From an uncultured virus (IMG/VR IMGVR_UViG_3300025732_000038) (lineage: Duplodnaviria; Heunggongvirae; Uroviricota; Caudoviricetes), in IMG/VR virus record IMGVR_UViG_3300025732_000038: a DNA stretch of 20,000 bases. One strand, given 5' to 3'. The notes under the pieces were generated by a model. That model was given only the letters and a program-made list of their open reading frames with translations, ran no database searches and was not told where the DNA came from. A program made the position numbers and the translations under genes. Within the stretch, counting starts at the first letter, position 1. Every line of letters begins with the position of its first letter. Shown here piece by piece: positions 1 to 17,200 of this stretch.

Positions 1-207
1 AAGGTTCAGACGGTTGTGGAGGGCGGTTTCACCATCGGTCACATCACTTCCATTTCCAAGTTGGAGGAGTTGTGCGATAAGGTGAACGGCAAGTCCGCAC
101 CGAAGCCCAAGAAGTCGGTGGTGGATGCTGAGGCAGACCGCCTCGCCAAGAAGTTGACCAAGGCGCAGGTGCGTAGCCTCATCAAGAAGTTGGAGGCTTC
201 GCTCTGA
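1..207 (+). CDS. Hypothetical Lys-rich phage early protein (5'-truncated)
   Basis: Frame 1 is open from base 1 to TGA at 205-207, with codon usage like the other phage genes. The basic C-terminus has no recognisable family motif. Confidence 0.7.
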   Translation, partial: KVQTVVEGGFTIGHITSISKLEELCDKVNGKSAPKPKKSVVDAEADRLAKKLTKAQVRSLIKKLEASL

Positions 208-208
208 G

Positions 209-226
209 TGGTAGGAAAACCTACCA
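209..226. repeat. 18-bp palindrome, copy 1 (TGGTAGG-AAAA-CCTACCA)
   Basis: Perfect 7-bp inverted arms around 4 A/T bases, just after the stop codon at 207. Recurs at 557-574 and 1525-1542. Confidence 0.9.
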
Positions 227-288
227 GCCGAAACGCCGTGAGGCGTCGTTCGCAGGTTGCCCTCTGCGAGCCTGAATGATGGCAGGGC
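227..288 (+). ncRNA. Type II hammerhead ribozyme (variant core, pseudoknotted)
   Basis: Stem II GCC 227-229 / GGC 281-283. GAAA 230-233. Stem III CGCC-GUGA-GGCG 234-245. GUC cleavage triplet 245-247. Stem I GUUCGCAG 248-255 / CUGCGAGC 264-271. Core CUGAAUGA 272-279 plus extra U280. Loop I GCCCU 259-263 is complementary to tail AGGGC 284-288. Confidence 0.85.
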
Positions 289-297
289 TGAAAGGAA

Positions 298-498
298 ATG
301 GAAATGAAAATCAACTACATCGTTCACCGCTTGGAGGGTGGGCGTTACCAAATCGTTGCGTGGTGGCGCGACGGTGCGGGTGAGGTTCATCAGCAGTTTG
401 ACCGTCCTCGTGAGGGCGGTGTGTCGTATGAGGAAATCGTGGCGATTCATCGTCATGAGATGGGTGACCAGCCGTTGGGTAAGATTCAGTTCGCCTGA
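298..498 (+). CDS. Hypothetical protein (66 aa; start may be 304)
   Basis: Preceded by AAAGGA (291-296), immediately downstream of the hammerhead, and co-oriented with its neighbours. Confidence 0.7.
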   Translation: MEMKINYIVHRLEGGRYQIVAWWRDGAGEVHQQFDRPREGGVSYEEIVAIHRHEMGDQPLGKIQFA

Positions 499-538
499 CG
501 GGAAGTGATAGTGGCGTCGCACAAGATGAGTCTTGTGC

Positions 539-592
539 CACGCTGAGAGCACATGGTGGTAGGATTTCCTACCAGTGTGTGTTGTCAGCGTG
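539..592 (+). promoter_or_regulatory. Long intergenic hairpin (about 25 bp) capped by palindrome copy 2
   Basis: CACGCUGA 539-546 pairs with UCAGCGUG 585-592, and 548-555 pairs with 576-583 using G-U wobbles. The apex is UGGUAGG-AUUU-CCUACCA 557-574. An adjacent hairpin GCACAAGA-UGAG-UCUUGUGC lies at 519-538. Confidence 0.7.
557..574. repeat. 18-bp palindrome, copy 2 (TGGTAGG-ATTT-CCTACCA)
   Basis: Arms identical to copy 1; intergenic. Confidence 0.9.
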
Positions 593-626
593 AAACACAC
601 GCACACAAACAACAAGGAGAAACAAC

Positions 627-854
627 ATGAGCAAGTCACAGGAAATGCGAATCATCGATTCGTACGAGTACGAGGGCATCTTTATCCCTCGTCGTGATGA
701 GGAACCGGACACCGATTTCGGTGTTGTCGGTCAGTTTGATGACATGGATGACGACGACATGGTGTCGTTGGAGTGGCGCATCTCCGCTCGTCTGCGTGGT
801 GAGCGTGAGGCGTTGGGCATGTTCCACCATTACAACAAGGAGGTGATGGCGTGA
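627..854 (+). CDS. Hypothetical acidic protein (75 aa)
   Basis: Strong AAGGAG RBS after an AC-rich leader; GTGA overlap with the next ORF. Confidence 0.8.
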   Translation: MSKSQEMRIIDSYEYEGIFIPRRDEEPDTDFGVVGQFDDMDDDDMVSLEWRISARLRGEREALGMFHHYNKEVMA

Positions 855-1102
855 GCCAGTACGCATCGGATGCCCGAGTTGTCGGGGCGTGGCGAGACTC
901 GTTGGAGTATCCCATCGTTGAGGATAACTTCATCGTGGAAAAGAAAGCGAAAGAACTTTCGTACATGAAAGCGTACGAAATTCAGGATGTGTGGTACGAG
1001 TCTCCTGACTTGTCTCGCGCATTCATTGAGTGGGTAAAAGCCCAAGACACCGAACAACTTGTTGCTGAGTTGTTCCGAACAGAGAAGGGAGAGAGCAAGT
1101 GA
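851..1102 (+). CDS. Hypothetical protein (83 aa)
   Basis: GGAGGT RBS, GTG start overlapping the upstream stop, and GTGA coupling to the next gene. Confidence 0.8.
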   Translation: MSQYASDARVVGAWRDSLEYPIVEDNFIVEKKAKELSYMKAYEIQDVWYESPDLSRAFIEWVKAQDTEQLVAELFRTEKGESK

Positions 1103-1530
1103 ACACACAAACAAATGAAAGGTGGGCGGTCATGCGTCCGCAGAACAAGGGCGAGTTCTACATGAAGTGGCAGGGCCACTATTGGTCCGGTCTTGTCTCA
1201 GTACAATCTCGTGGTCGTTGGTGGTACAAGGATGACGGATTCGTTCATCTTTCTACCGATGACATGGACGAATGGTGGGGCATGATGGAAATAGTGCGCG
1301 CATTTCATGTGCGTCCATCCAGCGATGCGAGAATGAATGAGTATCTCGTCATCGCAGAGATGCCGTTTCCGCACGAGCATCTCGTGCTTGCCCACAATTT
1401 CAGCACCCAAGACGAAGCGATTCGTTTCTTGGATGACATGTATGCGTCCACCACTTGCGTGTGGGACGCAGAGGTCTATGTCGGTGGCTCCACTCTGATG
1501 GAGTATCGCATGGAGAGAGGGCTGTTGTAG
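1099..1530 (+). CDS. Hypothetical protein (143 aa, Trp-rich)
   Basis: GTG start overlapping the upstream TGA, with a purine-rich RBS. No recognisable motif. Confidence 0.75.
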   Translation: MNTQTNERWAVMRPQNKGEFYMKWQGHYWSGLVSVQSRGRWWYKDDGFVHLSTDDMDEWWGMMEIVRAFHVRPSSDARMNEYLVIAEMPFPHEHLVLAHNFSTQDEAIRFLDDMYASTTCVWDAEVYVGGSTLMEYRMERGLL

Positions 1531-1542
1531 GATTTCCTACCA
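1525..1542. repeat. 18-bp palindrome, copy 3 (TTGTAGG-ATTT-CCTACCA)
   Basis: One mismatch to copy 2. It overlaps the TAG stop at 1528-1530, is extended by GGCTG 1520-1524 / CAGCC 1541-1545, and lies upstream of the amidoligase gene. Confidence 0.85.
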
Positions 1543-1578
1543 GCCAAACAACAACCAACAACAACAGAAAGGAAAGTC

Positions 1579-2799
1579 ATGACAGCATCAGAGGATTTCG
1601 TTCCCGAGGAACCACCGATTGGTGAGTGCCACAACTGTGGCGAGGAGCGTGTGCTCACGTCCGTCGCGGACGGATACTCGTATGACGAACAGCACCGCTG
1701 GCGTCAGCGTCATCACATGTACTGCGAGGAATGTTTCTTCCACTGTAACGAATGTGATGAGCCGACACCAGAGACCAACCGCTATCCGTCCCCGCTGAAT
1801 GGCAGGGCGTATTGCGAGGATTGTTATTGCGAAACTCACAACACATGCGAGCGTTGCGATGACACCATCTGGGCGCACCAGTCCAACTATCCCGACTTCC
1901 GCGATGGTCCCTACTGTGACGATTGCCTAATGGTGATTGAGGATGAGTACTACGGAGGTGACTGCGACTATGAACATCCGTCTAATGTCATCAGGTCGTA
2001 CTCAACCAAGTTGGGTAGCGTGTTCCGTCACTGGGACACTGTCATCAACGACTGCGTTCTCACTGGTCGTGGTCGTCACGAGATTCCGTATCTCGGCTTT
2101 GAGTTGGAGACCAACATGCGCGAGGGGTCGGGTTACGAGTTGCGTGAGCGTGGTGCTATCGCTCTGCGTGACGCATCGCCCGATGACTACCTCATCATGA
2201 AAGAGGATGGCTCCATCAGTGGATTCGAGATTGTCACCGAACCGTGTGACTATCGCACCCACTTGGAGTTGTTCCCGTGGCACATGCTCAACAAACTTGC
2301 TACCGATTTCGGTATGACATCGTGGCGTGGCGCTGGCGCTGGGCTTCATGTCCACATCAGCAAGTCATCGTTCAGCAAACTCCACCTCGGTGCGTTCCTC
2401 CAATTCCATGACAAGAACATCAAGGAACTCGTCAAGTTGGCGGGTCGCGAGTCCACCTACTCCAAGTTCGGACGCACGATTCGTGACTGGAACCACGATG
2501 TCAAGATGGACAGAGTGAAGCAGGCGATGGGATTGGAAGTGAACGGCGACCGCTATGTCGCAGTCAATCTCCAAAACCGCAACACTGTGGAACTGCGCTA
2601 CTTCCGTGGCAGTCTCAAAGAGCAGACTGTCAAGGGTGTGTTGGAGTTCACGCACTCGTTGTGGCAGTACACCAAGCAGACCAAGTTCACTTCACTTGAC
2701 TCGCACAAGAACATTCTGTGGCCGGCGTATCGTGAGTGGCTGTTCGCTCAGCCAGAGTTCACGCACGCTCAGTCACTCGTCACTACCCGTGGTCTCTGA
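1579..2799 (+). CDS. Putative amidoligase (COOH-NH2 ligase, Amidoligase_2-like) with N-terminal Cys-rich Zn-finger repeats
   Basis: Motifs GFELET, KEDGSI..GFEIVTEP, GLHVHIS and RYVAVN....TVELRYFRGSL are typical of glutamine synthetase/GCS-fold phage amidoligases. Six CxxC motifs occur in the first ~116 aa. AAAGGA RBS; adjacent to a class II GATase. Confidence 0.85.
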   Translation: MTASEDFVPEEPPIGECHNCGEERVLTSVADGYSYDEQHRWRQRHHMYCEECFFHCNECDEPTPETNRYPSPLNGRAYCEDCYCETHNTCERCDDTIWAHQSNYPDFRDGPYCDDCLMVIEDEYYGGDCDYEHPSNVIRSYSTKLGSVFRHWDTVINDCVLTGRGRHEIPYLGFELETNMREGSGYELRERGAIALRDASPDDYLIMKEDGSISGFEIVTEPCDYRTHLELFPWHMLNKLATDFGMTSWRGAGAGLHVHISKSSFSKLHLGAFLQFHDKNIKELVKLAGRESTYSKFGRTIRDWNHDVKMDRVKQAMGLEVNGDRYVAVNLQNRNTVELRYFRGSLKEQTVKGVLEFTHSLWQYTKQTKFTSLDSHKNILWPAYREWLFAQPEFTHAQSLVTTRGL

Positions 2800-2822
2800 C
2801 CACAGAATAGGAGATACATCAA

Positions 2823-3674
2823 ATGTGTTTGCTCATCTACGCCAGCCCTAATCACAACCCGTCCAAGAAAGCCTTGCGTCGTGCTGCGAACAACAACCCT
2901 GATGGGTTCGGGTTCGCTGTGCGCACCAACAAGGAAGTCTTGTACTACAAGTCCATGTCTATTGAGGACACCATCAAGGAGTTCTTTGACCTCCGCAAGC
3001 GGTTCCCCGATAGCCATTCCATCTTCCATCTTCGCATCACCACGCATGGTGCTACGAATCTGGACAACTGCCATCCGTTCGTAGTGGATGACGCCATCGT
3101 GCTTGCGCACAACGGCATGCTCCCCATCAAGGAACAAGATGGCAAGTCTGACACTCGCCAGTTCGCGGAGGAATGGTTGCCGACGATGGGCGTCAAGGAA
3201 ATGCTTGACGACCCTCGTGGCTTCGCAGAGTTGGAAGCATTTGCGACGGGTTCCAAGTTGGCTATCGTTTCCGCCAACCCGCAACTTGACCATCCGTTCT
3301 ACATCGTGAACGAACGGCTCGGTCATTGGGACAAGGGCGTGTGGTATTCCAACTCGTCGTACACCAAGAACTACAACTCGTGGATGTCGTATTCGTCTGC
3401 GTCGTGGCGTTCATACAACGGTCACGGCTACACCCCACAAGATGATGCGCTTGTCATCAACAACTCGTGGCAGTGGGACGAGGAGCAAGACGAGTGGTAC
3501 TACGAGGACGAGATTGTTGACTGGCGCTGTAATGTGTGCGACCTGACAACCACGATTGACCTCGCTGACGACGAGCCTCGTGCCTGTCCGGAGTGTGGCA
3601 CGTGCTGGTTCTGCGAGAAGGACTACTCGTCCTGCTACTGTTGGCATCCGAAACTACAATTGGAAAGGAAGTAA
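2823..3674 (+). CDS. Class II (Ntn) glutamine amidotransferase with C-terminal Cys-rich Zn ribbon
   Basis: N-terminal nucleophile MC, with NPDGFG, HLRITTHG, NCHPF, AHNG and SDT motifs. C-terminal CNVC..CPECGTCWFC..CYC. AGGAG RBS. Confidence 0.9.
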   Translation: MCLLIYASPNHNPSKKALRRAANNNPDGFGFAVRTNKEVLYYKSMSIEDTIKEFFDLRKRFPDSHSIFHLRITTHGATNLDNCHPFVVDDAIVLAHNGMLPIKEQDGKSDTRQFAEEWLPTMGVKEMLDDPRGFAELEAFATGSKLAIVSANPQLDHPFYIVNERLGHWDKGVWYSNSSYTKNYNSWMSYSSASWRSYNGHGYTPQDDALVINNSWQWDEEQDEWYYEDEIVDWRCNVCDLTTTIDLADDEPRACPECGTCWFCEKDYSSCYCWHPKLQLERK

Positions 3675-3794
3675 ATGAACTGGGTATTGCTCATCTCATT
3701 CTTGTGGGCGGGTATCGTCGTCGGTCTGATGGCGTTCTCGTTTCATGTCGGATACAATCATGCTCTCTACGAACTACGGAAGGATAACGAATAA
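3675..3794 (+). CDS. Small membrane protein (39 aa, MNWVLLISFLWAGIVVGLMAFSFHVGYNHALYELRKDNE); not in the ORF track
   Basis: ATG directly follows the GATase TAA, with an AAAGGAAG RBS, a single hydrophobic helix and a TAATG overlap with the next gene. Confidence 0.7.
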   Translation: MNWVLLISFLWAGIVVGLMAFSFHVGYNHALYELRKDNE

Positions 3795-3991
3795 TGGAAC
3801 CGACACTCAGTCTTGATGTAACCTTTGAGGAATTGTCTGCGCTTCACAAGACAATCGGTATCGCGATTGACAACCTCAACAGCAAGGTCGCCCGTCTGGG
3901 TACTGACTCTCATCGGGGTAGCGATGCGCTCTCCGACCTCAACCTGCTAGCCAACATTCAACGTCAGATTCTTGACCAACTCACCAACTGA
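3794..3991 (+). CDS. Hypothetical helical protein (65 aa)
   Basis: AAGGA RBS and TAATG coupling to the upstream ORF. Confidence 0.75.
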   Translation: MEPTLSLDVTFEELSALHKTIGIAIDNLNSKVARLGTDSHRGSDALSDLNLLANIQRQILDQLTN

Positions 3992-4000
3992 AAGGCAACC

Positions 4001-4435
4001 ATGAACAACAAACTCAGCACCAACGATGAACTCTTCAACTCGTTCCTTGTGTGGGCAACGAACGCCGACTCGTGGAACGACCAGTATGCCAGCGTATGGG
4101 CAAGGGGCAGTAGCCTCGACGAGTGGGACATTCAGGTCTTGCCGACGCAAGACCCGTACCATCTGCTCCCCTTGTGCGTTCAGTCAACACCCAAGGACAG
4201 CGCACAGGAGTACATGATGATGATGTACGGCTGGGCCACCCCTGTCACGGAGGACAACGAGGAGGTGGAGGGCGAGGAACGTCGCCGCATCCGTGTCATC
4301 GTCTACTTCCACAAAGGGGAGGAACGTATCGCTCTCCAATTCAAGGGCGAAACGATTGAGGAAGTGCCGAACGGTGAGGGTATGTTCGGTGACGCAATCC
4401 GAGAACTTCGGGCAATCCAATCAGCAAACAACTAG
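4001..4435 (+). CDS. Hypothetical protein (144 aa)
   Basis: AAAGG RBS, tight gene packing and phage-like codon usage. Confidence 0.8.
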   Translation: MNNKLSTNDELFNSFLVWATNADSWNDQYASVWARGSSLDEWDIQVLPTQDPYHLLPLCVQSTPKDSAQEYMMMMYGWATPVTEDNEEVEGEERRRIRVIVYFHKGEERIALQFKGETIEEVPNGEGMFGDAIRELRAIQSANN

Positions 4436-4443
4436 GAGGAAGC

Positions 4444-4704
4444 ATGAGAGAAGCATCAACCCCGTACACGATGGTGTACTCCCCTCTTGTCTTCGTGGAT
4501 TTCGATGAGCACGGTAACGTCCGTTCTCACGAACTCCAATGGAGCACGGAGGGCGGGCTGTATGTCAACGACAACAAGAACAAGAAGCGTTTCATCTTGA
4601 ATCAGTTGCCTCAGGAAATCGTTGAGCAAGTGGATGACTACCTGAGCGCGCTTGATCTCGTGCGCTGGTTCCAGCCAGAACCCATGCCCGATGAACCGTT
4701 CTGA
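4444..4704 (+). CDS. Hypothetical protein (86 aa)
   Basis: AGGAGG RBS just upstream of the ATG. Confidence 0.8.
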   Translation: MREASTPYTMVYSPLVFVDFDEHGNVRSHELQWSTEGGLYVNDNKNKKRFILNQLPQEIVEQVDDYLSALDLVRWFQPEPMPDEPF

Positions 4705-4831
4705 CAACACGGAACGCTGGGTATGCCCCAAGTGTGGCACTAAGTTGACAACCCATGTGGTATTATCGGAACCACCGTCTTGTATCAAGCACCGTGGTGG
4801 CTGGGTCAAGATGGTTCCGCAAGGCAAGTAA
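4691..4831 (+). CDS. Small Zn-ribbon protein (46 aa, MNRSDNTERWVCPKCGTKLTTHVVLSEPPSCIKHRGGWVKMVPQGK); not in the ORF track
   Basis: WxCPKCG...CxxH metal-binding pattern. It fills the gap between the previous ORF and the terminator hairpin exactly. Confidence 0.65.
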   Translation: MNRSDNTERWVCPKCGTKLTTHVVLSEPPSCIKHRGGWVKMVPQGK

Positions 4832-4874
4832 CGAAACGCCCTCGGCACAGCGCCCCTGTGTCGGGGGCTTTCGT
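4831..4874 (+). terminator. Probable intrinsic terminator ending the early operon
   Basis: GCCCUCGGCACAG 4838-4850 / CUGUGUCGGGGGC 4856-4868 stem with a 5-nt loop, followed by UUUCGU that can also pair with ACGAAA 4831-4836. Located right after the stop at 4831. Confidence 0.7.
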
Positions 4875-4890
4875 CGTCTCTACCCACCAG

Positions 4891-4913
4891 TTGACAAACC
4901 CCGTTGCTACAAT
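4891..4913 (+). promoter_or_regulatory. Putative promoter for the replication operon (extended -10 TGcTACAAT; TTGACA only 11 bp upstream)
   Basis: TTGACA 4891-4896 and TACAAT 4908-4913 preceded by TG, located between the terminator and the gene at 5005. The spacing is non-canonical. Confidence 0.5.
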
Positions 4914-5004
4914 CAACTTCGTCAGAAGTTGCTAGGGGGATACAGTATCCACGGCGCTCGAAGCGCCGTGGATTAGGTAACTACGACAAAGACAAGGAGG
5001 ACGA

Positions 5005-5454
5005 ATGTCCGACCCTACCCGTTGCCCTGTCAAAGGTCACGACCCCGACTGTCTCTGTGATGTCATCGTCACCGAGCCATCGCCAATCCTTTCGGATTGG
5101 GCGAACGATGGCTGGTTCACGAAGGTCATAGCGGAGCGTCTTGGTCTGTCTACGCCTTGGACTGACGCAACCATTCTGGAACTTCTCGTGGCGCAGACCA
5201 TGCTTCACGATGAGTATGTGGTACAATACAAACTTGAGGTTCTTTCTGAGGAAGAACGCAAGCGTAACAAGAGTGAGCGCAAGACCCTGATGTCGCCCGA
5301 ACAGATGAACGATGTTCAGCGTATGTTCATCAACGGGGCCACGACTACGGCTGTTCGTATCCATCTCCAATCCAAGTACGGATTGGAACTAACCAAGACG
5401 TACGCGGCGCATCTGCGCCGGCGTACGTTGGACAAGGTGAACAATGAGAGTTGA
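5005..5454 (+). CDS. Hypothetical protein, possible DNA-binding regulator (N-terminal C/H metal site, C-terminal HTH-like helices)
   Basis: AAGGAGG RBS. CPVKGHDPDCLC at the N-terminus. The C-terminal SPEQMNDVQRMFINGATTTAVRIHL..YGLELTKTYAAHLRRR resembles a helix-turn-helix. Confidence 0.6.
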   Translation: MSDPTRCPVKGHDPDCLCDVIVTEPSPILSDWANDGWFTKVIAERLGLSTPWTDATILELLVAQTMLHDEYVVQYKLEVLSEEERKRNKSERKTLMSPEQMNDVQRMFINGATTTAVRIHLQSKYGLELTKTYAAHLRRRTLDKVNNES

Positions 5455-6268
5455 ACAAAGGTCAGATGGCGCTGATGTGTATGTCAGGCAGTCGTGGATA
5501 AACGACGCGATGATGTGCGCCGAGCGAGGCAGGCAAGCAATCATCCGTCCCGAGTGGTCTATGCCTAATGATGCCACCATTCTTGGTACGGCTGTTCATG
5601 CTGGCATTGCCACCATTCTGGAGGGCAAGGGTAGTGGCACTAAGGTGGCGCACGAAACGCTGAATGAGTTGATCGCCCAGCCTTTCATGCGTACGAAGTA
5701 CACGAATGAGGAACTTCACGATCATGCTCGCGAACTCGTGTCTGAGTGGGAACGCAACGTCGCCCCTCATGTCGGTGAGGTCGTTGCCGTTGAGAAAGAT
5801 TTCGAGTTCCTGCTCGATGAGTTCACAGACCCAACGCTTGGTGTCGTGCGTGTTCATGGCAAGGGAACGATTGACCTCGTTACCACCACGGATGTGTGGG
5901 ACTGGAAGACAGCGGGGCGCAAGTACAACGCCAGAGAGAAACAGTCACAAGCGGTACAGCCAACGATGTATTCGGCTGCCGCTGTTGCCATGGGCTGGCT
6001 GGAGTATCCTGTAACATTCAAGTATGGCGTTATGGTTCGTGGCGGTAAGGCACAGATCGTGCCCGTTCATCGCAACGAAAGCCACACCGAGTGGCTACGA
6101 GACATCGTTCGCCCGTTTGTACGGACAACGATGTTGCTCGGTACTGACACATCATGGACAAAGAATGACACGCACTACCTGTGTAGTGAAACGTGGTGTT
6201 CATGGTGGTCAATCTGTAAGGGAAGCAAACTGTCACCTAGTGACCTGACCCCCGAAGGGGATAAGTAA
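5444..6268 (+). CDS. Cas4/RecB-like PD-(D/E)XK exonuclease
   Basis: GTAVH, VEKDF, GTIDLV, DWKT and QxxMY motifs. One N-terminal Cys plus C-terminal CSETWCSWWSIC fits an Fe-S cluster staple. Confidence 0.85.
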   Translation: MRVEQRSDGADVYVRQSWINDAMMCAERGRQAIIRPEWSMPNDATILGTAVHAGIATILEGKGSGTKVAHETLNELIAQPFMRTKYTNEELHDHARELVSEWERNVAPHVGEVVAVEKDFEFLLDEFTDPTLGVVRVHGKGTIDLVTTTDVWDWKTAGRKYNAREKQSQAVQPTMYSAAAVAMGWLEYPVTFKYGVMVRGGKAQIVPVHRNESHTEWLRDIVRPFVRTTMLLGTDTSWTKNDTHYLCSETWCSWWSICKGSKLSPSDLTPEGDK

Positions 6269-6717
6269 TGATTAGCAAGGACCAGTCAATCATCATGCAG
6301 GTTGCCGCAAAGATCGCGGCTGAACTGTGTGTCAAGTCAGACAACTTGGAAGCAACGCTCTCCGATTGGGACGTGGCTTTCAACTTTGTGAACGACAAAC
6401 TTCAGACCACCAATGGCGTGGAGATGGTGAAGGCGGCGTTCCCCACGGCAACGATGGTGACCGAAGCGGACATCCCGTCCAGCGCGATTCAGGTGACGCT
6501 CGCTCCTGCGCGTGACACCTCCTCTGTCACCGTTGCTGGCACTCAGCATGGCGACCTTCCGAACTGGCTCGTGTCTGCGTGCCAGAAGGCTGGCGTTGGG
6601 CGAGTGTGGGACAACCGCGACTCTGCTGTCGGAACGAAGCGCCCTTGGTTCAAGCAGGCGGACGCGCCTGAGGGTGTTGAGCCTGCGGCGTTTTGGCCGC
6701 CGAAGAACGTCAAGTGA
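6268..6717 (+). CDS. Hypothetical protein, possibly single-stranded DNA binding/annealing
   Basis: TAATG coupling; lies between the exonuclease and helicase; aromatic/basic C-terminal motif VWDNR..KRPWFK..FW. The function is inferred from position only. Confidence 0.55.
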   Translation: MISKDQSIIMQVAAKIAAELCVKSDNLEATLSDWDVAFNFVNDKLQTTNGVEMVKAAFPTATMVTEADIPSSAIQVTLAPARDTSSVTVAGTQHGDLPNWLVSACQKAGVGRVWDNRDSAVGTKRPWFKQADAPEGVEPAAFWPPKNVK

Positions 6718-7763
6718 CGTTGGTTGACACAGACGAGATCGCTTCTCGTTGGGCTTCCTTGGCGGGGGACGATGAGTCCCCTGCCTCGGAACCCGTTGAG
6801 CAGAGCAAGCCGCACGTGTACTACCGTCCGCTTGACGAAGCGGCTCACGAGTTTGTGCGTTGGGCACAGTCCCCACACGAACGCGTGTACACGGGCTTCG
6901 CTGATCTTGATGATCAGATGCGTGGCATTGCTCCTGGCGAAATGACTCTCGTCGTTGGCTACTCCCACTCGGGCAAGACGCTCACCATGTTGGAGATGTT
7001 GCGCACCAACCGCAACAAGAACGTGGTGTACTTCGTCCCCGACGAACCGCGCACCTTGGTACTCATCAAGTTGGCTTGCGTTATCCATGGCGTGAACGCG
7101 TTTGATCTTGAGCGTGCTATCGCCGCTGACGATGAGCGTGCCATTGATCTGTTGCGTGAGACAGCGAACGAGTACTTCCCCAACCTTGCCGTGTTTGACC
7201 AGCCGATGGCTTTGTCCGACATGGAGAAAGCGATGGGCGAGGTATGCGATGTGTGGGGGCAGAAGCCCGACCTCGTAGTGTTCGACTATCTTGAGTTGCT
7301 TCAGGGTGGTGGCGAGGACGTACCGTCCAAGGCGAACACGTTGAAAGCGTGGGGTCGTCGGCATGATGTGCCGTTGCTGGTGCTTCATCAGACTTCCCGT
7401 TCGTCTGGTGCTGACGGTAGGCGCATGACTATCTCGTCGGGTTCATTCGGTGGCGAACAGCAGGCGACACACATCATCGGTGTGCGACGCAAGCGGTTTG
7501 AGATTGAGTCACAGATTCGTGAACTTGAAGCGAAACTGGACAGGTCAACCGTCAGCGAACGTGCGATGGAGCAACTCGATTTGTTGCGCTACAACGCTCG
7601 CATCCATGCCCACACTCTCACGCTCAACCTCGTGAAGAACAAGCGTCCAGCGGGCAACCTGCTTGACGACATTGACTTTGAGATTGAGCAGGGAACGGGT
7701 AGGCTTTCCCGTCTGCGTGACGGTGAGTTGCCACGCCAGTTCCTCAACGAGATTGGTAGATAG
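6714..7763 (+). CDS. dnaB: DnaB-like superfamily 4 replicative helicase
   Basis: YTGFADLD, Walker A GYSHSGKT, Walker B VVFDYLELL, LHQTSR and VKNKR motifs. The likely GTG start at 6714 overlaps the upstream TGA (the ORF track starts at 6693). Confidence 0.85.
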   Translation: MTLVDTDEIASRWASLAGDDESPASEPVEQSKPHVYYRPLDEAAHEFVRWAQSPHERVYTGFADLDDQMRGIAPGEMTLVVGYSHSGKTLTMLEMLRTNRNKNVVYFVPDEPRTLVLIKLACVIHGVNAFDLERAIAADDERAIDLLRETANEYFPNLAVFDQPMALSDMEKAMGEVCDVWGQKPDLVVFDYLELLQGGGEDVPSKANTLKAWGRRHDVPLLVLHQTSRSSGADGRRMTISSGSFGGEQQATHIIGVRRKRFEIESQIRELEAKLDRSTVSERAMEQLDLLRYNARIHAHTLTLNLVKNKRPAGNLLDDIDFEIEQGTGRLSRLRDGELPRQFLNEIGR

Positions 7764-7765
7764 TC

Positions 7766-8665
7766 ATGATTGCGGAGGACAAGGTTGGCGACTTCGTAAC
7801 CCTGTTCCGTGGTCGTGGTGACTGCTACGGCTCTTGGGAAGGTGGCTGTGTCCGTGAGCCACTCACCTTTGAATCGTTCGCCAATCATCTGGAACGAGGC
7901 CCGCACATCGGTGTCTACCCCTGTGTCACTGCGTCTGGCAAGACGCTGTGCGTATGGGGTTGTAGCGACATTGACTATGACGAGCCAGCGCACGCATGGA
8001 TTCTTGCTGACGCTCTCTCTCATGTCGGTGTGACCGCATGGGTTGAGAAGACTGCGAGAGGCTACCACGTGTGGGTGTTCGCTACCGAACTGACGCCAGC
8101 GTCGGACATGCGGCGCATGTTCCTCGCCGCTCACAAGGTTGTTGATCTCCCACCGAAGGAAGTCAATCCGAAGCAGGAAACCTTGGAGCGTGGGCAAGTG
8201 GGCAACTACGTTCGTCTCCCGTATCCGAACATCGGCTCTGGTAAGAGAGTCATGGTCAATCGCGATGGTTCACCCATCTCGTTTGATGACTTCATTGCCA
8301 GCGCCATTGGCAGTCGCATCAACCCCGAAAGGGTTGGGGAGATTGCTAAACTGTACAAAGCACCGACAGTTGAGGCGCGCGATTATGGTCAGCCCTCGGC
8401 TGACCTTGCTTCAACGGTTCGTTCTCTTTCGGTCGCAGGCCGAGCCATCTACCGTGATGGCCCGCTTGAGGGCAGGGATAGATCAACCACACTTGTTCGT
8501 CTTGCCTACGAGTGCAAGCAAGCGAACATACATCCAGCCGACGCACTTAGAATTTTGGAGGATGCTGATTTGCGATGGGGCAAGTACATGGCGAGGGGCG
8601 AAAGAGGACACGTGGAGTTGGAAAAATTACTGGTGCGAGCGTACGGTCGCACTCCATCTTCATAG
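7766..8665 (+). CDS. AEP-superfamily primase-polymerase (TOTE-primase-like) with C-terminal helical PriCT-like domain
   Basis: LFRGRGDCYG, GVYP, catalytic SDID, KTARGYHVWVF and NYVRLPY motifs, then RDRSTTLVRLA. Directly follows the helicase. Confidence 0.85.
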   Translation: MIAEDKVGDFVTLFRGRGDCYGSWEGGCVREPLTFESFANHLERGPHIGVYPCVTASGKTLCVWGCSDIDYDEPAHAWILADALSHVGVTAWVEKTARGYHVWVFATELTPASDMRRMFLAAHKVVDLPPKEVNPKQETLERGQVGNYVRLPYPNIGSGKRVMVNRDGSPISFDDFIASAIGSRINPERVGEIAKLYKAPTVEARDYGQPSADLASTVRSLSVAGRAIYRDGPLEGRDRSTTLVRLAYECKQANIHPADALRILEDADLRWGKYMARGERGHVELEKLLVRAYGRTPSS

Positions 8666-8988
8666 AAGGCAAGCCACACCCAAAGGAACGACCACGTGTT
8701 GTTCAGCGCAACGGCAAGGCTTTGGCATACACGCCGAAGAAAACTGTTGACGCTGAGAAAGCAATAGCCCAAGCGTGGGACGGGCCAGTCTTTGAGGGCG
8801 AGGTTGCTGTCCACATCGTGGTGGACACGGAAGGAACAGCGATCATCGTTGAGCGCGTCGACATTGACAACAAGACGAAGTTGCGTGGCGATCTAGACAA
8901 CTACATCAAGACAATCCTTGATGCGTTGAACGGTATCGCTTGGCGTGATGACTCTCAGGTTGTCAAGATCACGGGAATCAAAGCATGA
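8575..8988 (+). CDS. rusA: RusA-family Holliday junction resolvase
   Basis: GKPHPKERPR, YTPKKT and GDLDNYIKTILDALNGIAWRDDSQV match the RusA signature. The start position is uncertain (91-nt overlap with the primase). Confidence 0.9.
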   Translation: MGQVHGEGRKRTRGVGKITGASVRSHSIFIEGKPHPKERPRVVQRNGKALAYTPKKTVDAEKAIAQAWDGPVFEGEVAVHIVVDTEGTAIIVERVDIDNKTKLRGDLDNYIKTILDALNGIAWRDDSQVVKITGIKA

Positions 8989-9449
8989 ACGCCGCCGCCT
9001 TCAAGGACAAGAGTTGGAACGGCAGGTACGGTTCAATGGGTGACACGGCGGAGACAGCGTTCTTGGGTATCCACCCTTACGCTCACCGCATGGGTCTCAA
9101 CCGCCCTGTCTTTGATGTGCGTGGCATGGCCGACGCCATGCGATACGCACCAGACTTCATGGTTCCCGACTGCCTGTATGAGGTGATGGGCGTGGCGTCA
9201 CGTGGTGATGGTACGCTCAAACTGAAACTGAACAAGGCTTCAGCACTTCAGACATGGCAGTGTATTGGGCCGATCAGGATGTGGATTTACGATTCGTCTC
9301 GCAAGAGGTATTGGGATTCTCCTCTTGTAGATTGGTTGAAGGCATGCCACAAGCATGCCAGCGTGGACAGGTTCCACGACAACAACCAGCCGTACTTCGC
9401 ATTGCCGATTGAGAACTTTCCATCGGAGCCTATCCGCCATGCCGTTTGA
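8985..9449 (+). CDS. Putative PD-(D/E)XK-like nuclease fold protein
   Basis: GxxAExxF helix, then APDF and LYEV, but M replaces the canonical K (EVM). ATGA coupling to rusA. Confidence 0.55.
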   Translation: MNAAAFKDKSWNGRYGSMGDTAETAFLGIHPYAHRMGLNRPVFDVRGMADAMRYAPDFMVPDCLYEVMGVASRGDGTLKLKLNKASALQTWQCIGPIRMWIYDSSRKRYWDSPLVDWLKACHKHASVDRFHDNNQPYFALPIENFPSEPIRHAV

Positions 9450-10209
9450 CCCTGACGTATTGGCAGCAGTGCCCACGACCGAAGCAGAAAGACTGCTACA
9501 GTATGGGGACGATACAACCAACTACGACATTGCGCACATTGAGGCTGTGCGTGATGCGATTGAAACACTCGGGCCAGAAGCAAGGTTCTGTGTTGAAGCC
9601 ATCTTCTATGAGGGCATCTCATACAGCACACTTGGTAAGCGGCTCGGGGTATCCAAGCCTCACGCTTGGCGGTTGGCTCGCAAAGCCATCGCTGAACTTG
9701 AGCGCAAACTATTCACCAACCACGCTATCAACATGAGGTACAAGGTGTTCGACAACTGGGAAGATGCGGCTGAAGCAATCGTTATCGAATGGGACGGTAC
9801 GTCTGGTTCGCAAGCGGCTCACCATCCGCACATTGAGTTCTATCGCACGCGCCTAGCCAAGGCAGTACGGGAACAGGAGGAGACGCCTCGGCTTCTCATC
9901 ATTGATCTCGCCTACCTTGCTGTCAACGAGTTGCGTTATCGCAAGCAATGGGACGCCGAAGAGATGGTTGCCCTTCTCGTGCGCAAGCAACGAGACTACG
10001 GGCATAACAACATCCTGGAGTTCGGACATGTCGGACTCATGATTCGGTTGTGTGATAAACTGGCAAGACTCAATACCCTGCTGGATAGCGGAGCGGAACC
10101 GTCCAACGAATCGTTGATCGATACGTGGATGGACATCGTTGGCTATTCGGTAATTTCCGAAATGCTCTTTATGAATACGTTCAGTCTCGACCTCAAGGAG
10201 GAATCATGA
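9439..10209 (+). CDS. Sigma-70 region 4-like HTH fused to a DUF1599 (nucleotide-modification-associated, all-alpha NTP pyrophosphatase-like) domain
   Basis: N-part VRDAIETL..EARFCVEAIFYEGISYSTLGKRLGVSKPHAWRLARKAIAEL. C-part KQRDYG..N...GLMIRLCDKLARL...NESLIDTWMDIVGYSVI. Likely start is ATG 9439 with a GGAG RBS (the ORF track starts at 9355). Confidence 0.75.
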   Translation: MPFDPDVLAAVPTTEAERLLQYGDDTTNYDIAHIEAVRDAIETLGPEARFCVEAIFYEGISYSTLGKRLGVSKPHAWRLARKAIAELERKLFTNHAINMRYKVFDNWEDAAEAIVIEWDGTSGSQAAHHPHIEFYRTRLAKAVREQEETPRLLIIDLAYLAVNELRYRKQWDAEEMVALLVRKQRDYGHNNILEFGHVGLMIRLCDKLARLNTLLDSGAEPSNESLIDTWMDIVGYSVISEMLFMNTFSLDLKEES

Positions 10210-10382
10210 AAATGTTTGAACACGAGCGATTGTCGCCCATTGAAATGGAAGCACTGCTCATTGCCCTCACCCTATTTGTTGTGGGTGACGACGACAAGGC
10301 GATAGATCAGATTGCTCAGATGTCGGAAGTGATTGCTACGCGGATGGAGGAAGACATCAATGGCGAAACTCCAGAAGAATGA
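10206..10382 (+). CDS. Hypothetical protein (58 aa)
   Basis: AAGGAGG RBS and an ATGA overlap with the upstream stop. Confidence 0.7.
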   Translation: MKMFEHERLSPIEMEALLIALTLFVVGDDDKAIDQIAQMSEVIATRMEEDINGETPEE

Positions 10383-10521
10383 CTACAAGGAACTGCTTGC
10401 CGCTTTGAACAAACTCAAAGCGACAGTCCTTTCCAAAGGAATGCCATACAATAATGTGCGCACCATTGATGACACCATCAATGTTGTTACCAGAGTGATG
10501 GAGAAGCATGTTCATGAGTGA
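10360..10521 (+). CDS. Hypothetical protein (53 aa)
   Basis: GGAGG RBS upstream of ATG 10360; tight packing. Confidence 0.65.
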   Translation: MAKLQKNDYKELLAALNKLKATVLSKGMPYNNVRTIDDTINVVTRVMEKHVHE

Positions 10522-10765
10522 CCTTGAAGGCTTTGACCCAGAAGACATTGCCGATCTGGAGGCGCGAGCCAGACGAATTGAGCATGACCACGACACATAC
10601 TTTGAGTTGACGTTAGTTGTCAACGCACATGGGGCGAAAGAGTTTCTTCGCAAGTATTACGAAGCGAAGGACGGTGAAGTCATGTCATTCTTAGACATGA
10701 TGATGATCGTCCACGCGATAGCCAAATCGCTAGAGGAGGCTCTCGCTCAGGACGATGGTTCGTGA
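10508..10765 (+). CDS. Hypothetical acidic protein (start 10508 or 10514)
   Basis: GGAG RBS; last gene of the + strand block. Confidence 0.7.
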   Translation: MFMSDLEGFDPEDIADLEARARRIEHDHDTYFELTLVVNAHGAKEFLRKYYEAKDGEVMSFLDMMMIVHAIAKSLEEALAQDDGS

Positions 10766-11244
10766 CCTCTAGTATCAGCAAGTAGCAATGCGAACACGAA
10801 GTCGATGTAAGCGGCGTTGTCGGCAACCTCGTTGCTGATTTCCACATGGAGCCACCGCCCATACGGGGCGCCGCTTACAGTCGGCTTCTTGTAGTCCTGC
10901 CAAGCAAGACGAGTGACATTCCAACCGCGCCCATAAGGCGCGGGGAAGTAATCAACAATCAGTTCAATACCCAAGGCCTCCCAGTTGCGGACAAAGAAGT
11001 CCGCCAAGGCGAGGCCATCTTCACGGTTGGTGTAACCGAAATCGACAGCCCGCCCCGTACTGTGGACGCTGGGCTTGCCAGGTTTGCCGCGCATGTCGCG
11101 CACCATGAACGAACCAAGATTACGAATCTTGCCACCGTTCAGGAACAGAACGTAGTCAATCAACTTCTGTGTTCCAGCGCGTCGACCCGAAGCCTGTTTA
11201 TCAAAGCCCGTGTACGTGCGCTTTCCCTTCCAGATTTTCATCAC
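10747..11244 (-). CDS. Peptidase M15-family (Zn-dependent, D-Ala-D-Ala/L-Ala-D-Glu type) putative endolysin
   Basis: R..RG...SVHSTGRAVD (SxHxxGxAxD) and WLHVEI Zn-ligand motifs. GTGA coupling to the giant gene; last gene of the late operon. Confidence 0.8.
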   Translation of the reverse strand: MMKIWKGKRTYTGFDKQASGRRAGTQKLIDYVLFLNGGKIRNLGSFMVRDMRGKPGKPSVHSTGRAVDFGYTNREDGLALADFFVRNWEALGIELIVDYFPAPYGRGWNVTRLAWQDYKKPTVSGAPYGRWLHVEISNEVADNAAYIDFVFALLLADTRGHEPSS

Positions 11245-14200
11245 CAGTTCTCCTGTCGTCGCTGTTCAGCCTCACGCTGCGATGCCGTAACACCACGCAA
11301 TGGGATGCCCAAGTATCCGAAGATGTTGCTCAACTGGCGTTCCTCGTTGTAGTCTGTTGAGGGCATGATGCGCTCGACCTGGCCGAGCAACGGCACGAGG
11401 TTCTGAACCGCATAGTTGAAGCGTTCGCTTGAACCGCGTTCTCCCGATGGGAGATCGCGTCCTTGGAATAGAAGTTCAGCAAGCAACTGAACCGCAGGCT
11501 TCAGTGGACCACCAGCAGTCTGCTGATCTTCATCCCTGAATGGCACGTTCCTATAGAACTTGCGGTCACCGAAGATCGTTTCAAACGGTAGGCGCAAGAT
11601 CGGGTTGACGTACGACAGCAGGCGAGCGGGGTCAGAGAACTCCTCAAACTGCTGGCCCACCCTATTGAATCCCATGTCCATCATGACGTATAGGTTGTCG
11701 CCAACCTTCACGGCGCCCTGTTCCTTCATCCACGATGGCAAGAACTTGTCCTCGTCGTCATTCACTCCGAGGTTGTTCATGGCGTCCTGATAGATGTTGT
11801 AGGCGCGAGGGTTCTGCCATTGGTTCATGATCTGGAGTGGTAGGTTGCGCGACATCCAGAACCAGAACGGAACAATGGGGCGCATGATGGCATCGCCCAC
11901 GCCAACATCCGTGTAATCAAATAGATACCGCTTGACTCGTGCGGTGGCTTGATTGAAATCAAGGCCACGCACAACCGAATCGTAGGCGAGCATAAATCGG
12001 GCGCTACCTTCAACTGCTTCGTTGCGGGTGCGGAATAGGCGGGTGTACTTGTTGTCAGTCAAACCAGCACGCTTAGGTTTCCACATCAAAAACGCGTCGC
12101 TAGTCTTGCCGTACCCAGACGCGTCGGCAGCCTTGATGGCCAAGCCGACAGTGAACCTGTCCGTCTCGTTGAGACTAGCAAGCCATGCTTCGTGCGTTCC
12201 GTTATCAACGGCTTGAGTAAACTTGCGATACCAGCCTAAACCTTCGCTCATATTCTTGGGTGACGCGCCAGCAGCCACAAGCATGAAGGTGTTCTGCATC
12301 GCGTTACGAACAACGAACCCTGGTGTTGATGTGGCGTACGACTTGAAGAAACCAGTGTACTTGCCGATTACTCTATTGAGTGCACGAATGTAGGATGGCT
12401 CCAACATCTGCGACATGTTGCGAGAAATCTCCTCAAGTTCGGGCGCAGCCTGATACGAAGGCAAGCCCAGCCGCTCCAAGGAAACCATGCCCTCGTTGAG
12501 TTGCTGCACCACGCGCTTGCCCCAGTAACCATCGCGCAAGTTGAGAAGCATGTTCTCTGCGGCGGCAGCCTGACGTTCGCGCATGACGAACGCAGATGAC
12601 GCCTCAAGATAATCCGCCTTGAGACGCAACAACTTCTCGTAATCCTTCTTGGCAACAGGACGATTGACATAAGCCGAATATGCGTCAGTCAACCAATGAC
12701 CAGCCTCGCCGCTAATAGCGGTCTGACTTTCTGGTGCGGCAGTATGGCCGACCTCGGCAAGCAACTCCTCGGATTCCTTGAGCCATTCCTCCATATCAAG
12801 TTTGACGGCAAGGAGATCATCGCTGGCCCTGTCCTTGACAGCGTTCAGTTTGTCGAGAATTGTTCGCAGTCCTTCGGCCTTGCGCGCAAGAGATGGAACG
12901 ACAGTAGCGGCGTGCTTCTGCGCATCCATGTAGTTGACATGAGAGGAATCAAACTTCTTGCTTGCTTCAAGCAATGCTTCTTCGGCTCGGATAACGTCCT
13001 TTGTTTCCTGCTCAACCAACTTGGCGCGACCGCGCTCCATCTTGGCGGTTGCCACATCCTCGGCTTTCCAGGCCTTCTTGAGTTCCTTCTCCATCTCCTT
13101 GGCATTCTTGATCAACTTGGCACGAGTGCCCTCAAGTGTCTGCGTGCGAGTCATACCAATGCCAAAGATTTCGTACGTATCGCCAGGATAGATGCTCTTG
13201 AGGAAGCCGATCTCGGCTTCAATCTGCGCCTTCCTGAAAGCAAACTCATTGAGTTTTGCTGATGTCACGAGGATATCCGCTTGAGGATGAAGGTCTACGA
13301 CCTCACGAGCGATGGTATCCACCGCTTCTCCAATGCTTGCGCCATCACTGCGTAGCGCAGCATAACGCTCAAGTGCATTGTACTGTTCCTTGGTTGTACG
13401 CGTGATTGACTCAAGATAGCCAGTCAGTTCATCGCTGATTCTATCAAGTTCATACTTGGCTCCAGCAACACCAACAACTGGCTTCTCGTATGGAACCTTG
13501 TATGCTTGAGTGCGCGCAAATTCTTGCGCCTGCTTTTCTGCTTCCTTCGGAGCAACTCCAGCATCAATCAACTCTTGATACTTTGTTGTCCGTATATTTG
13601 AATAGTCGCCAATATTCCATGGCTTGTATCCATACGGAGCGCCAGGTTGTGGTGCGTGCACATCACCCCATGCCTTGCGCGCAGCATTGCGCATTTCGGT
13701 GACAGTCTTGACAACCTTACCAGTTTCGCGAACAGTTTTATTATAAGCAACTTCTTCTGCTGAATTGCGCAACTCATCAACAGTGCCGAGCAATTCCGCT
13801 TCCTTGCTATCTGCCCACACCCTATCAATATAGCCCTTGCGCCAGCGAACAAAGTTGCTGTCAACGGTATAGACCGTTTCCTTATTTGTCCGCGCGGTGT
13901 AAGAGAATGCGTTTGCGACATCCTCAATGGTAATGTCACCATTACCGATTGCTTGGGCAATCCAATGAATCTTCTGAAGCACCGATTTCTGTTTTGCAGA
14001 ATTAGCAGTCGCTCCTTCAAACATAACTTCCGCACGCGCCGCCGCAATGTCTGCGTCCTCAATATCTTTTCTCATTGAGGCAATGGATGGCAAGCGCGCT
14101 TCTCGCTGCTTGGCAGCAGAACGCGAAACAGTCATGGCATAACGCCTTGCTTCTTCTTCGCTCATTCCTTCTGAACGCGCCATGCGATAAGCGGCACGTT

Positions 14201-17200
14201 GTGCTTCATCGCCAATCTTTCCAGCCTGTTCCGCCGCAGTGATTTCGCCAGCATACTGACGCATAGGCGGAACAATTCCAGCCTGCGTCTCCTTCAATTG
14301 GGATGCAAGAAGTTTGCTATCACCATGGAAATTGAACAACATTTCAATTTCCCATGGCTCAAACCCAAGATGGACTGGAGCACCACTTGAATCGCGGACG
14401 ACAAATGGAATAATAGGAGATTCAAGCAAAGGCCTAAGGCTACTATCCAATTGTTTCTGCAGGGCGTCCGCCTCTTCCGTTTTTCCCGCCTTAGCCAACT
14501 GCTTGATGCGCCGTTGTACACGAGCGACATCGCCCAATGTTGAATCAGTTTTGGGAATGAAATAAGTGTTGCCTTCAGTAATTTCTGCAGGATTCTGAAT
14601 GAGTTTATAATCCTGCGCTTCCCATTTCGCATCTATTTCAATGGTGCTTTCAATACGCGCCATTTGTGCTCTGAGAAGTTGTTCCGTTGCTTCCAACTGT
14701 TTTATTTCTTCTTCGATTGCAGCACGTTTTGCCATTGCGCCTTTGACTGTTGGGTCGATGGCCTGCCATTTTGTATTTAGTTCAATATTTTTCTTGACAG
14801 TAGCATTGATTTGATTTCTAACAGAAGCGGCCTCATTTATTGCCGTGTAATCCTTGATGCCCAACTTCACGTAGACAGTCTGGCCAGAATCAAAAGCATT
14901 CTTTGCAACTTTATGTCTAGGCAATTGATAGTACAAATCAAATGGACTGCTAGCGGCATAGGGAACCATCTGCTCAATAATGCTTTGCTCGTCCTGCCGC
15001 ACAAGAGCGCGCATATATTCAGGAGAACTCTCAACTTCAGCGATCTTATTATGCATTGCTCGCATAGCGCGAAGGTCCTGCATTTCAAGAACGCCAAGAA
15101 CATCTTGAGCATCCGTAAGTTTGGCACCCTTGGGAAGATTCAATGCTTCATTGACAACAATATCCCTATAGTTCCAGATGTCGGGATTCTCGGCGTCAAT
15201 CCTATAAATAAATTCCTCAATAGTCAACTCAGCCTTGATGGCTTCATTCAACATGAAATTGAATTTCTCGTTCGCCGCCTCAAGGCGACGAGCACCATAG
15301 GAAAGACTATTGGCATACCAGCCAGGCAGATCCTGAATGCTATTGCCAGTGAACTTCAACTGCCGAACGTCGACAAACGGGTCGCTGGCATCCATCAACC
15401 AGCCAGTGCGTTGACGCATGGTTCTTCCAGATTCCTGCGCCTTCTGCAATGTTGACTGCGCCCAACGCTTCATCTCCAAAGGAGATGCATCCTCGGTCAA
15501 ACGTCCAGAACTGGATTTGATAGCCTTGTATTCTTTGAGCGTAGCAACAATCTCGGCGTCCTTCAAAGACGTAGCAGAAGGGTCAACATGTGCACGCCAC
15601 CAATCAAGCAACTTCCCCTTCTTGAGAGCAGCCTTCTTGGCGCTCAACTGCTTGGGAGTAGGAAGTGATTCCAATTCTTTCTGCAACGCCAGACGCTGTT
15701 CTGGCGTAAGCATATCGTTCTTGAGGGCAAGGGCAAGTTTCTTGCGTTCCCACGCAAAACCACTATCGCCAGCCTTGCCACCATACCGCTGGAACTCGGC
15801 ATACAATTCAGCAGCCGAACCAGTACCATTCAACTTGGTGATAAGCGCGACCGACCTGTCGTTGTCAAACGTATCATCAGCAACAATCTTCTGAAGTCGA
15901 TTGTACAATTCCTGCGAGCGACCAGTCCAATCTGAACTTTCAATGACATCAAGAACTTCTCGCATCTTGGCTTCAACGCGAGTCAACCCAGATAGATGAG
16001 AGCGCACCTCAGTGGAAGAATCACGGGCAACGGCATTGATGACCGCCCTGAACATTGATTCGTTTGCGACGAATCCTTCTTTGGCCATGAGGTCAACGAC
16101 GCGATCAAAGCGGAGTTGAACCTCGCTCCTGAAATGCGTCTCCATCAATAGGTTGCCGAACTCGCGCCGAATATCATCGACGCTTGTACCACCGTATTCA
16201 AACTCTTGAATGGTCTTACCAAACGCGGCGGTTGCCTCGGCCTTGGCTTGCTTTAGCGCCTCGCCAGTTGCCTTCCCTTCTTGAACTGCACGACGAACAG
16301 CGGCAACATCTTTTTGTCCCTGTACATCATAGTATGCAATCTTGTTCTGTTCGTTCAACTTTCTGCGTGCATCGTTGATCAATGCCCGCAAACTTTCCTT
16401 CTCGCTGGAAGGATCGTACATTACTCGTCCAGTAATAACTCCAGTTCGTACGCTATCCTTCTCCACTTTTCCAGTAATGATCTTGTCAATGAAGTTTTCA
16501 ACTTCATCCATTGATGGAGCATTGCCCAATTCGTATGTCATCGAATTGATCATATTTCCAATATTGATGTATCTACTTCCACGTGAAGTATTCTTTAGTT
16601 CTCCACGCACAACATCCTGGATGGCAAACGAAATATCAAACTCGTGGCGATTGACCTCAGTCATGTGTCCCTTCAGGACATCAATGAGTTCATTCCATGT
16701 AATAGAGCGAGTTTCCTCAATTGAGTTCACCATCGCCATATCGCCCAAATCGCGGATAGTAGATTTGGCATTTACGCCTGGACCACGAAGCGCAAGACCA
16801 GCAAGATCGCTAGCCTCGAATCCTTCCTGCATATTTGCAAGCGCCCTGATGTTGATGTAGTTATCATCTGAACCAAGGAACGGCGACAGAAGATTGCGCA
16901 AAGATGAATACTGGTTGTCGTCCACAATGCTGGCAAGAATGTCATACGCAATCGGTTGATTCATATCAACCTTTCCGACAACATCACCCAACCGAATAAG
17001 AAGATTGGAAGCAGCAGCATGCGACGTCAGGTCGTCAATGATTGCACGTTCAATCGTCGCATAATTGTCCAGGATGCGCTGAACAGTAATGACACCACGA
17101 CCGCTACGGTTGGCTTTATTGAAAGCCAACAAATAGGAGTTGGCCTTTGCTGCCTCGGCAAGATACTGTTCCATACGAGTTCTCAACTCTGGAGCAATAT

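Follow-up and report, generated by a model that had tools for sequence, protein, structure and literature searches.

Predicted Pseudoknotted Type II Hammerhead Ribozyme with Two Core Insertions between Early Genes of an Uncultured Phage

Positions 227-288 of the window, by which we mean the whole 20,000-nt stretch of phage DNA analyzed here, probably give rise, in an early transcript of the phage, to a functional hammerhead ribozyme of type II with a pseudoknot. We put the probability of this reading at about 0.78. The element would belong to a recurring subgroup with an extra A after core position A6 (A6a), combined in this case with a common extra U between A9 and G10.1 (U9a). By analogy with known hammerheads the RNA would most likely be cut after C247, probably more slowly than by a canonical ribozyme, which would split the first early gene from the rest. 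That the double-insertion form is active at all appears rather likely. On sequence comparison, the element is homologous to canonical type II hammerheads, since an orthologue (G001) is identical except for the two insertions and matches the Rfam model Hammerhead_II (RF02276); we place it in the hammerhead class in the broader sense of Perreault 2011 and not under the canonical consensus.

Results and Discussion

Fold and Core of the Element

A base-by-base pairing check bore out all coordinates of the first-pass annotation, which had read three stems, GAAA, a GUGA loop, and a GUC triplet in type II order from this stretch (Table 1). The three stems surround the core, with stems I and III closed and stem II open, as expected for type II. 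All conserved hammerhead positions (C3, U4, G5, A6, G8, A9, G12, A13, A14, A15.1-U16.1, and H17) are present, and the G10.1-C11.1 and 1.1-2.1 pairs are both formed. The core departs from the canonical form in the way described in the same annotation: two bases (276-277) lie between A6 and G8, and U280 precedes G10.1. The element is the only hammerhead copy in the window and not part of an array.

Table 1. Features at and around the Predicted Ribozyme (Window Coordinates)
Feature	Position	Strand	Remarks
ORF0, 3' end of first early gene	1..207	+	about 161 aa; 5' part upstream of window, read in L125; putative DNA-binding regulator
20-bp genome-specific palindrome, operator-like	208..227	.	RNA hairpin 210-225; directly 5' of ribozyme
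Stem II	227-229/281-283	+	3 bp; C229 = C11.1, G281 = G10.1; G281-C229 paired
G12-A13-A14-A15.1 (GAAA)	230-233	+	pairing check; G230 presumed general base, role per PMC11300833
Stem III with GUGA loop	233-246	+	5 bp 233-237/242-246; A233-U246 = A15.1-U16.1
GUC triplet	245-247	+	pairing check
Predicted cleavage site C17/G1.1	247..248	+	by homology
Stem I with loop I	248-271	+	248-255/264-271, 8 bp including one U-G; G256-U263 possible; G248-C271 pair
Core C3 U4 G5 A6 (A6a) U7 G8 A9 (U9a)	272-280	+	CUGA-A-U-GA-U; insertions 275/276 and 280
Presumed general acid G278 (G8)	278	+	role from hammerhead chemistry
Pseudoknot, loop I strand	259-263	+	pairing check and permutation test
Pseudoknot, 3' tail strand	284-288	+	5 Watson-Crick bp with 259-263
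Shine-Dalgarno-like AAAGGA	291-296	+	also in three orthologous loci
Second early gene	304..498	+	64 aa; probable start 304; no Pfam or PHROG match

A search with Rfam models, which the first-pass annotation had put forward as a check, did not support the assignment: no hammerhead match was returned for window 1-1500 or for the whole window. A relaxed hammerhead descriptor, run on both strands of 300 dinucleotide-shuffled versions of the window, matched 4 of them, a rate that would suit a chance pattern or an assembly artefact. With stems III and I of the observed length the descriptor matched none of 300 such shuffles, and all of 200 shuffles fold less well than the region itself (z -3.1).

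When pseudoknots are disallowed, the computed fold is dominated by a rival helix, 226-229/286-289, with pair probabilities of 0.64-0.88 compared to 0.01 for stem II; the energies of the two folds are -34.1 and -33.1 kcal/mol, respectively. Rival helices of at least 3 bp occur in 25 of 46 U9a copies, and the fourth pair of the present one (A226) is missing in two orthologous loci, L133 and G001. Because such helices are common in the family and this pair is absent from both relatives, we do not treat the rival helix as a conserved switch.

Orthologous Loci

The nearest record that we compared, G001, is 93.8% identical to window 1084-14201 (13 kb). Upstream of 1084 lies a variable region that matches G001 in two islands only, and the ribozyme is one of them. 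At the same place G001 carries a copy in which 60 of 60 aligned bases are identical, with two 1-nt gaps as the only differences. These gaps remove exactly the two inserted bases and leave a canonical core. The 150-nt flanks on either side of the ribozyme are 41-52% alike between the two phages. The G001 copy matches RF02276 at 30.8 bits (E 7e-4), under the cut-off of this model (37 bits).

A third locus, L133, comes from a phage about 69% identical to the window phage in core genes. Its element contains both insertions and shares 60 of 62 bases with the window copy, and the two differences form a single compensatory stem I pair (G252A/C267U), which points to selection on RNA structure rather than on DNA identity. 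The fourth locus, L240, also contains both insertions within different stems I and II and with a different pseudoknot. Thus, among the four orthologous loci, both insertions are found in three and neither in one. Most simply, G001 would have lost both bases, or recombination would have exchanged the core. The sequence of the window element recurs in L125/L008. Given this recurrence, the shared insertions of L133 and L240, and the canonical G001 orthologue, orthology refutes a chance or assembly origin, to which we give practically no weight. These homologous loci, named in the first-pass annotation as a place where the proposal might fail, keep the core and the stems and show covariation. ORF-based searches for further loci returned only an overlapping contig or L133 (two additional matches of 11-13 aa were ignored), and a pattern with the exact stems gave no match among genome contigs.

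A conserved island between nonhomologous genes resembles a boundary sequence, and one may ask whether the double-insertion core has lost all or almost all catalysis and the element persists in another role, either structured leader or recombination boundary between early-gene modules. The preference of nested folds for the rival helix is in line with this idea, as is the observation that the inactive look-alikes described in PMC3088659 include several with more than one core deviation. The compensatory pair in L133 speaks for selection on RNA structure instead, and each insertion on its own has been reported in an active ribozyme (PMC3088659, PMC3705267). Moreover, all catalytic positions and GUC recur in 12 different sequences that have both insertions and unrelated stems, a count to be read with the fact that the search patterns fixed those bases. 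We consider a dead core unlikely, and favor a functional ribozyme.

Recurrence of the A6a Core

A scan of viral contigs revealed at least 124 hammerhead loci. Of the matches listed, 115 have 4 bp or more in stem I; they comprise 76 canonical cores, 34 with one base after A9, 1 with the double insertion, and 4 others; the sole double-insertion case among them is the window's own contig. Targeted scans followed by one structure filter raised these numbers to at least 12 distinct double-insertion sequences and at least 14 with two bases at N7 only. Scans of metagenomes and genomes gave at least 120 matches each, of which at least 5 and at least 2 passed the filter. Counts of core classes that come from different searches are lower bounds and not strictly comparable. 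A further genome scan produced 20 matches, with only the L358 contig scoring above 40 bits.

One of the 14 (L454), which satisfied the stem filter, was considered doubtful and left out; it has a GU insertion, no pseudoknot, and an AU-rich sequence. It was the only non-A case. L160, L213, L296, and L437 passed a looser filter and failed the final structure filter. The resulting A6a set contains 25 sequences (12 + 13, a lower bound), among which three near-identical pairs reduce independence. The search patterns fixed the catalytic bases and the GUC site and left the surrounding structure and the pseudoknot free. Because the structure filter included pairing in stems I-III, stem covariation in this set is partly circular; stem II of the 25 members shows three covarying pair types. 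A MAFFT alignment gave 75.8% paired positions and a covariation of 0.404 compared to 0.174, and this alignment, being nonstructural, serves as secondary evidence only.

The pseudoknot was not used in the filter. The first-pass annotation had proposed this contact between loop I and the 3' tail, and the family upholds it: at least 4 Watson-Crick pairs can form in 23 of the 25 A6a sequences, while 2000 permutations of loops and tails gave a mean of 9.6 such sequences and never reached 23.

All 25 sequences of the A6a set have A as the first inserted base. In searches that left the inserted bases free, A came first in 13 of 14 passing matches (search without U9a) and in 3 of 3 in another. Conversely, none of 34 viral-contig pattern matches with a non-A insertion plus U9a passed the structure filter. 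A6a sequences show no significant excess of U at N7 (21/25 compared to 56/84, p 0.13).

In L358 and L305, canonical single-N7 paralogues with similar stems lie beside A6a copies. The nearest neighbor of an A6a sequence is a single-N7 sequence in 7 of 25 cases and another A6a sequence in 16 of 25. The close paralogues and the seven single-N7 neighbors suggest that the A6a core has had more than one origin.

Could A6a strictly require U9a, each insertion compensating for the other? Three of the four orthologous loci contain both and the fourth neither, as mutual compensation would predict. However, 13 A6a sequences do without U9a. Among the listed matches, U9a accompanies 4 of 17 viral-contig A6a copies with searched tail and 34 of 110 single-N7 copies; this lack of enrichment argues against obligatory compensation, which we regard as quite improbable.

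Rfam captures this group incompletely. RF02276 matches 15 of 20 A6a copies tested, 4 above and 11 below the cut-off, and gives no match for the remaining 5 (L008, L133, L154, L190, and L240); the descriptors therefore need widening. An A6a copy stands alone as model match in 6 of 10 viral records, a complete 109-kb genome among them, and arrays are found in the other 4. No A6a core was found in a cultured phage among 6 loci checked from BLAST matches. The U9a form is present in the cultured phages R4, Paedore, and FP_Mushu.

Relation to Known Hammerheads

The class, its topology, the pseudoknot, the proposed role, and each single insertion have been described before. PMC3088659 reports type II hammerheads, their pseudoknot and its importance for the rate, and phage arrays, and it proposes processing of phage transcripts into gene-length mRNAs. 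It also describes a natural ribozyme with an A inserted after A6 that has low activity, and expects this base to disturb a core hydrogen bond. Oligonucleotide JP156 (marine scaffold) in Table S1 has a type II A6a core in our by-eye reading, on which the link to that statement rests. JP090 in the same table has U9a and derives from an active prophage array of A. tumefaciens. Consequently, the novelty implied by the first-pass annotation was too high: A6a already stands in PMC3088659, and the extra U before G10.1 is both common among the listed matches and known. What is new here, within the literature searched, is the double-insertion form and the recurrence of A6a. Neither was found beyond Perreault 2011 in a search that covered few subscription papers, and the type II alignment in Dataset S1 of that study may contain a double-insertion sequence.

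The type II phage and prophage hammerheads of Perreault 2011 and RF02276 share with the window element the topology, the conserved core bases, GUC, the loop I/3'-tail pseudoknot, and the intergenic position just past a stop codon and before a Shine-Dalgarno (SD) sequence. The window copy differs by its two extra core bases, the missing Rfam match, its single copy, and the repeated palindrome upstream. The A6a variant of Perreault 2011 (Fig. 5/S6) has the same extra A after A6, U7, and type II pseudoknot frame; it is without U9a and was presented as rare, in contrast to at least 25 distinct A6a sequences here.

A viroid ribozyme is known to have an additional A between A9 and G10.1 (PMC1636495, PMC3705267), and the review PMC3705267 states that U at this place gives 3-4-fold faster trans-cleavage than A. 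The CChMVd plus hammerhead and A. tumefaciens HH3 have their insertion at the position of U9a, where U is reported to be tolerated or faster; in the literature consulted it is known only with a single N7, whereas the window combines it with A6a. The PK hammerhead (Zhan et al. 2024, PMC11300833) shares the core chemistry and has a pseudoknot. In that ribozyme the pseudoknot with helix IV replaces helix II in a pistol-like architecture, whereas in the window a 3-bp stem II is present and covarying and the pseudoknot is a loop I/tail contact. Short insertions adjoining the core are known from PMC10085705 and PMC6765202, which describe hammerhead function in bacteria and phages as still open.

Genes and Palindromes around the Ribozyme

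The ribozyme begins 19 nt past the stop codon of ORF0. All four orthologous phages have the same layout: palindrome, ORF0, the same palindrome, ribozyme, SD, and next gene. The sequence of the palindrome differs by genome. In addition to the copy in front of the ribozyme, the window contains it at 556-575 and 1524-1543 (expectation for three sites, 0.01). Elsewhere such genome-specific palindromes were seen at L125:1386-1405, at 4 sites in L538, 5 sites in L539, and 2 sites in L240. All four sites changed between the window phage and G001, even within near-identical flanks, and the closest pair of ORF0 proteins (G001 and L240, 52%) also has similar palindromes. Because the palindromes change in concert with the ORF0 allele, this pattern is suggestive of a DNA-binding regulator role for ORF0, with the palindromes as its putative operators. 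The fold evidence for this assignment is weak: the model of one family member is all-helical (pLDDT 90), with a best fold match of Z 6.0 and weak HTH-type matches of Z 4-5, and Foldseek returned no match for either ORF0 model, the first of which was poor (pLDDT 60). The family comprises 32 clusters; the window protein has no Pfam match, and no Pfam family matches more than 1 of 32 family members. Together, palindromes and ORF0 resemble a regulator/operator system undergoing diversification, whose protein family is unannotated. The repeated upstream palindrome was found with 3 of 25 A6a copies, all in this phage group, and with none of 135 others, many of which have short flanks; given this distribution, it does not belong to the ribozyme family as such.

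The start codon of ORF0 seems to be ATA in the window phage (L125:1411-1427) and in G001 (L537), aligned with an ATG in L240, and TTG in L133 (L133:1027). A two-codon ATG-x-stop overlaps the ORF0 start in the window phage and in G001.

Only 2 nt separate the end of the pseudoknot from the SD. For the downstream gene the first-pass annotation had chosen the ATG at 298, which stands only 1 base past AAAGGA. The ATG at 304 stands 7 bases past it, and in each of the three orthologous loci an ATG follows the SD-like motif at 6 bases; both observations make 304 the more probable start. Phage-like genes downstream encode an amidoligase, a glutamine amidotransferase, an exonuclease, a DnaB-like helicase, a primase, and RusA. 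A sigma-70 scan gave 1 site compared to 1.3 expected.

Proposed Mechanism

If the element acts as a hammerhead, the 2'-OH of C247 would attack the 247/248 phosphate, with G230 as the base and the 2'-OH of G278 as the acid. These roles would correspond to the G12 base and the G8 2'-OH acid of the hammerhead core chemistry set out in PMC11300833. C272 and G278 would pair in the core, as in established hammerhead chemistry, and the pseudoknot would keep stems I and II parallel. The extra A would probably lower the rate, and the extra U would be neutral or partly offsetting. The upstream product would be an ORF0 fragment with a 2',3'-cyclic phosphate end behind two hairpins. The downstream message would begin with a 5'-OH at G248, 56 nt ahead of AUG 304; it would start with a hairpin, keep both strands of the pseudoknot, and reach the SD after 43 nt. 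In general, though with exceptions, a 5'-OH end protects an RNA from the usual decay that depends on a 5'-monophosphate. Such cleavage would uncouple the stability and translation of the ORF0 message from those of the downstream early genes without any protein. The role in mRNA processing that had been suggested from the sequence fits the homologues and the literature.

A different emphasis is that A6a is a selected state that slows or conditions cleavage, with lineages flipping between fast and slow cores. Cutting might then compete with translation, in that a ribosome on SD 291-296 would melt the pseudoknot, or it might depend on a ligand or a protein. The invariant inserted A and the failure of non-A controls would agree with selection of this kind, and so would the canonical paralogues and neighbors that suggest repeated origin and the fact that both bases differ between 94%-identical phages. 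Yet the preference for A may only mirror what the fold tolerates, possibly through stacking on A6. The closeness of the SD to the pseudoknot, which invites the idea of competition, is general in the family (median 11-17 nt across all four core classes), and A6a is rare (1/115 among matches listed). We see such tuning as a minority possibility. With similar reserve, one may imagine that A6a has repeatedly evolved and been overlooked as a rare defect, that it sets how long ORF0 and the early operon stay joined, and that the speed of an ORF0/operator/ribozyme module flips between relatives. In any event, the ribozymes of the window and G001, which occupy the same position in 94%-identical phages, agree in every stem and differ only by two core bases. 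This natural pair offers a clean test both of the extension that the core tolerates and of selection on cutting speed.

Further Observations

Cultured phages such as R4 offer a tractable system for hammerhead function. Type II hammerheads in Streptomyces phage R4 (L499), Paedore (L497), FP_Mushu (L498), and CRP-212 (L536) are absent from the annotated features. R4 contains four within 4 kb, two of which overlap the annotated small ORFs gp81 and gp75.1.

Several type II folds have other cores. L421:903-970(-) and L028 have A in place of G8 and are probably inactive or another variant. Two paralogous hammerheads at L161:789-864(-) and 331-407(-) have two extra bases between A9 and G10.1. L029, L093, and L057 have altered cores, which read CUGAAGU followed by stem II in two and CUGAAUAUU in one.

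Window 503-625 is the second conserved intergenic island (84% with G001) and contains a perfect hairpin (520-537) and a long stem enclosing the palindrome. Its Rfam match to freshwater-2 (17.9 bits compared to a cut-off of 49.9) was discarded together with a weak L31-leader match, both being far below the cut-off. The ORF at window 9355-10209 combines, within a single frame, a segment resembling sigma-70 region 4 with a DUF1599 segment, and the 2829-aa ORF at 11241-19730 (-) is, guessing from its size, probably a virion or ejected protein.
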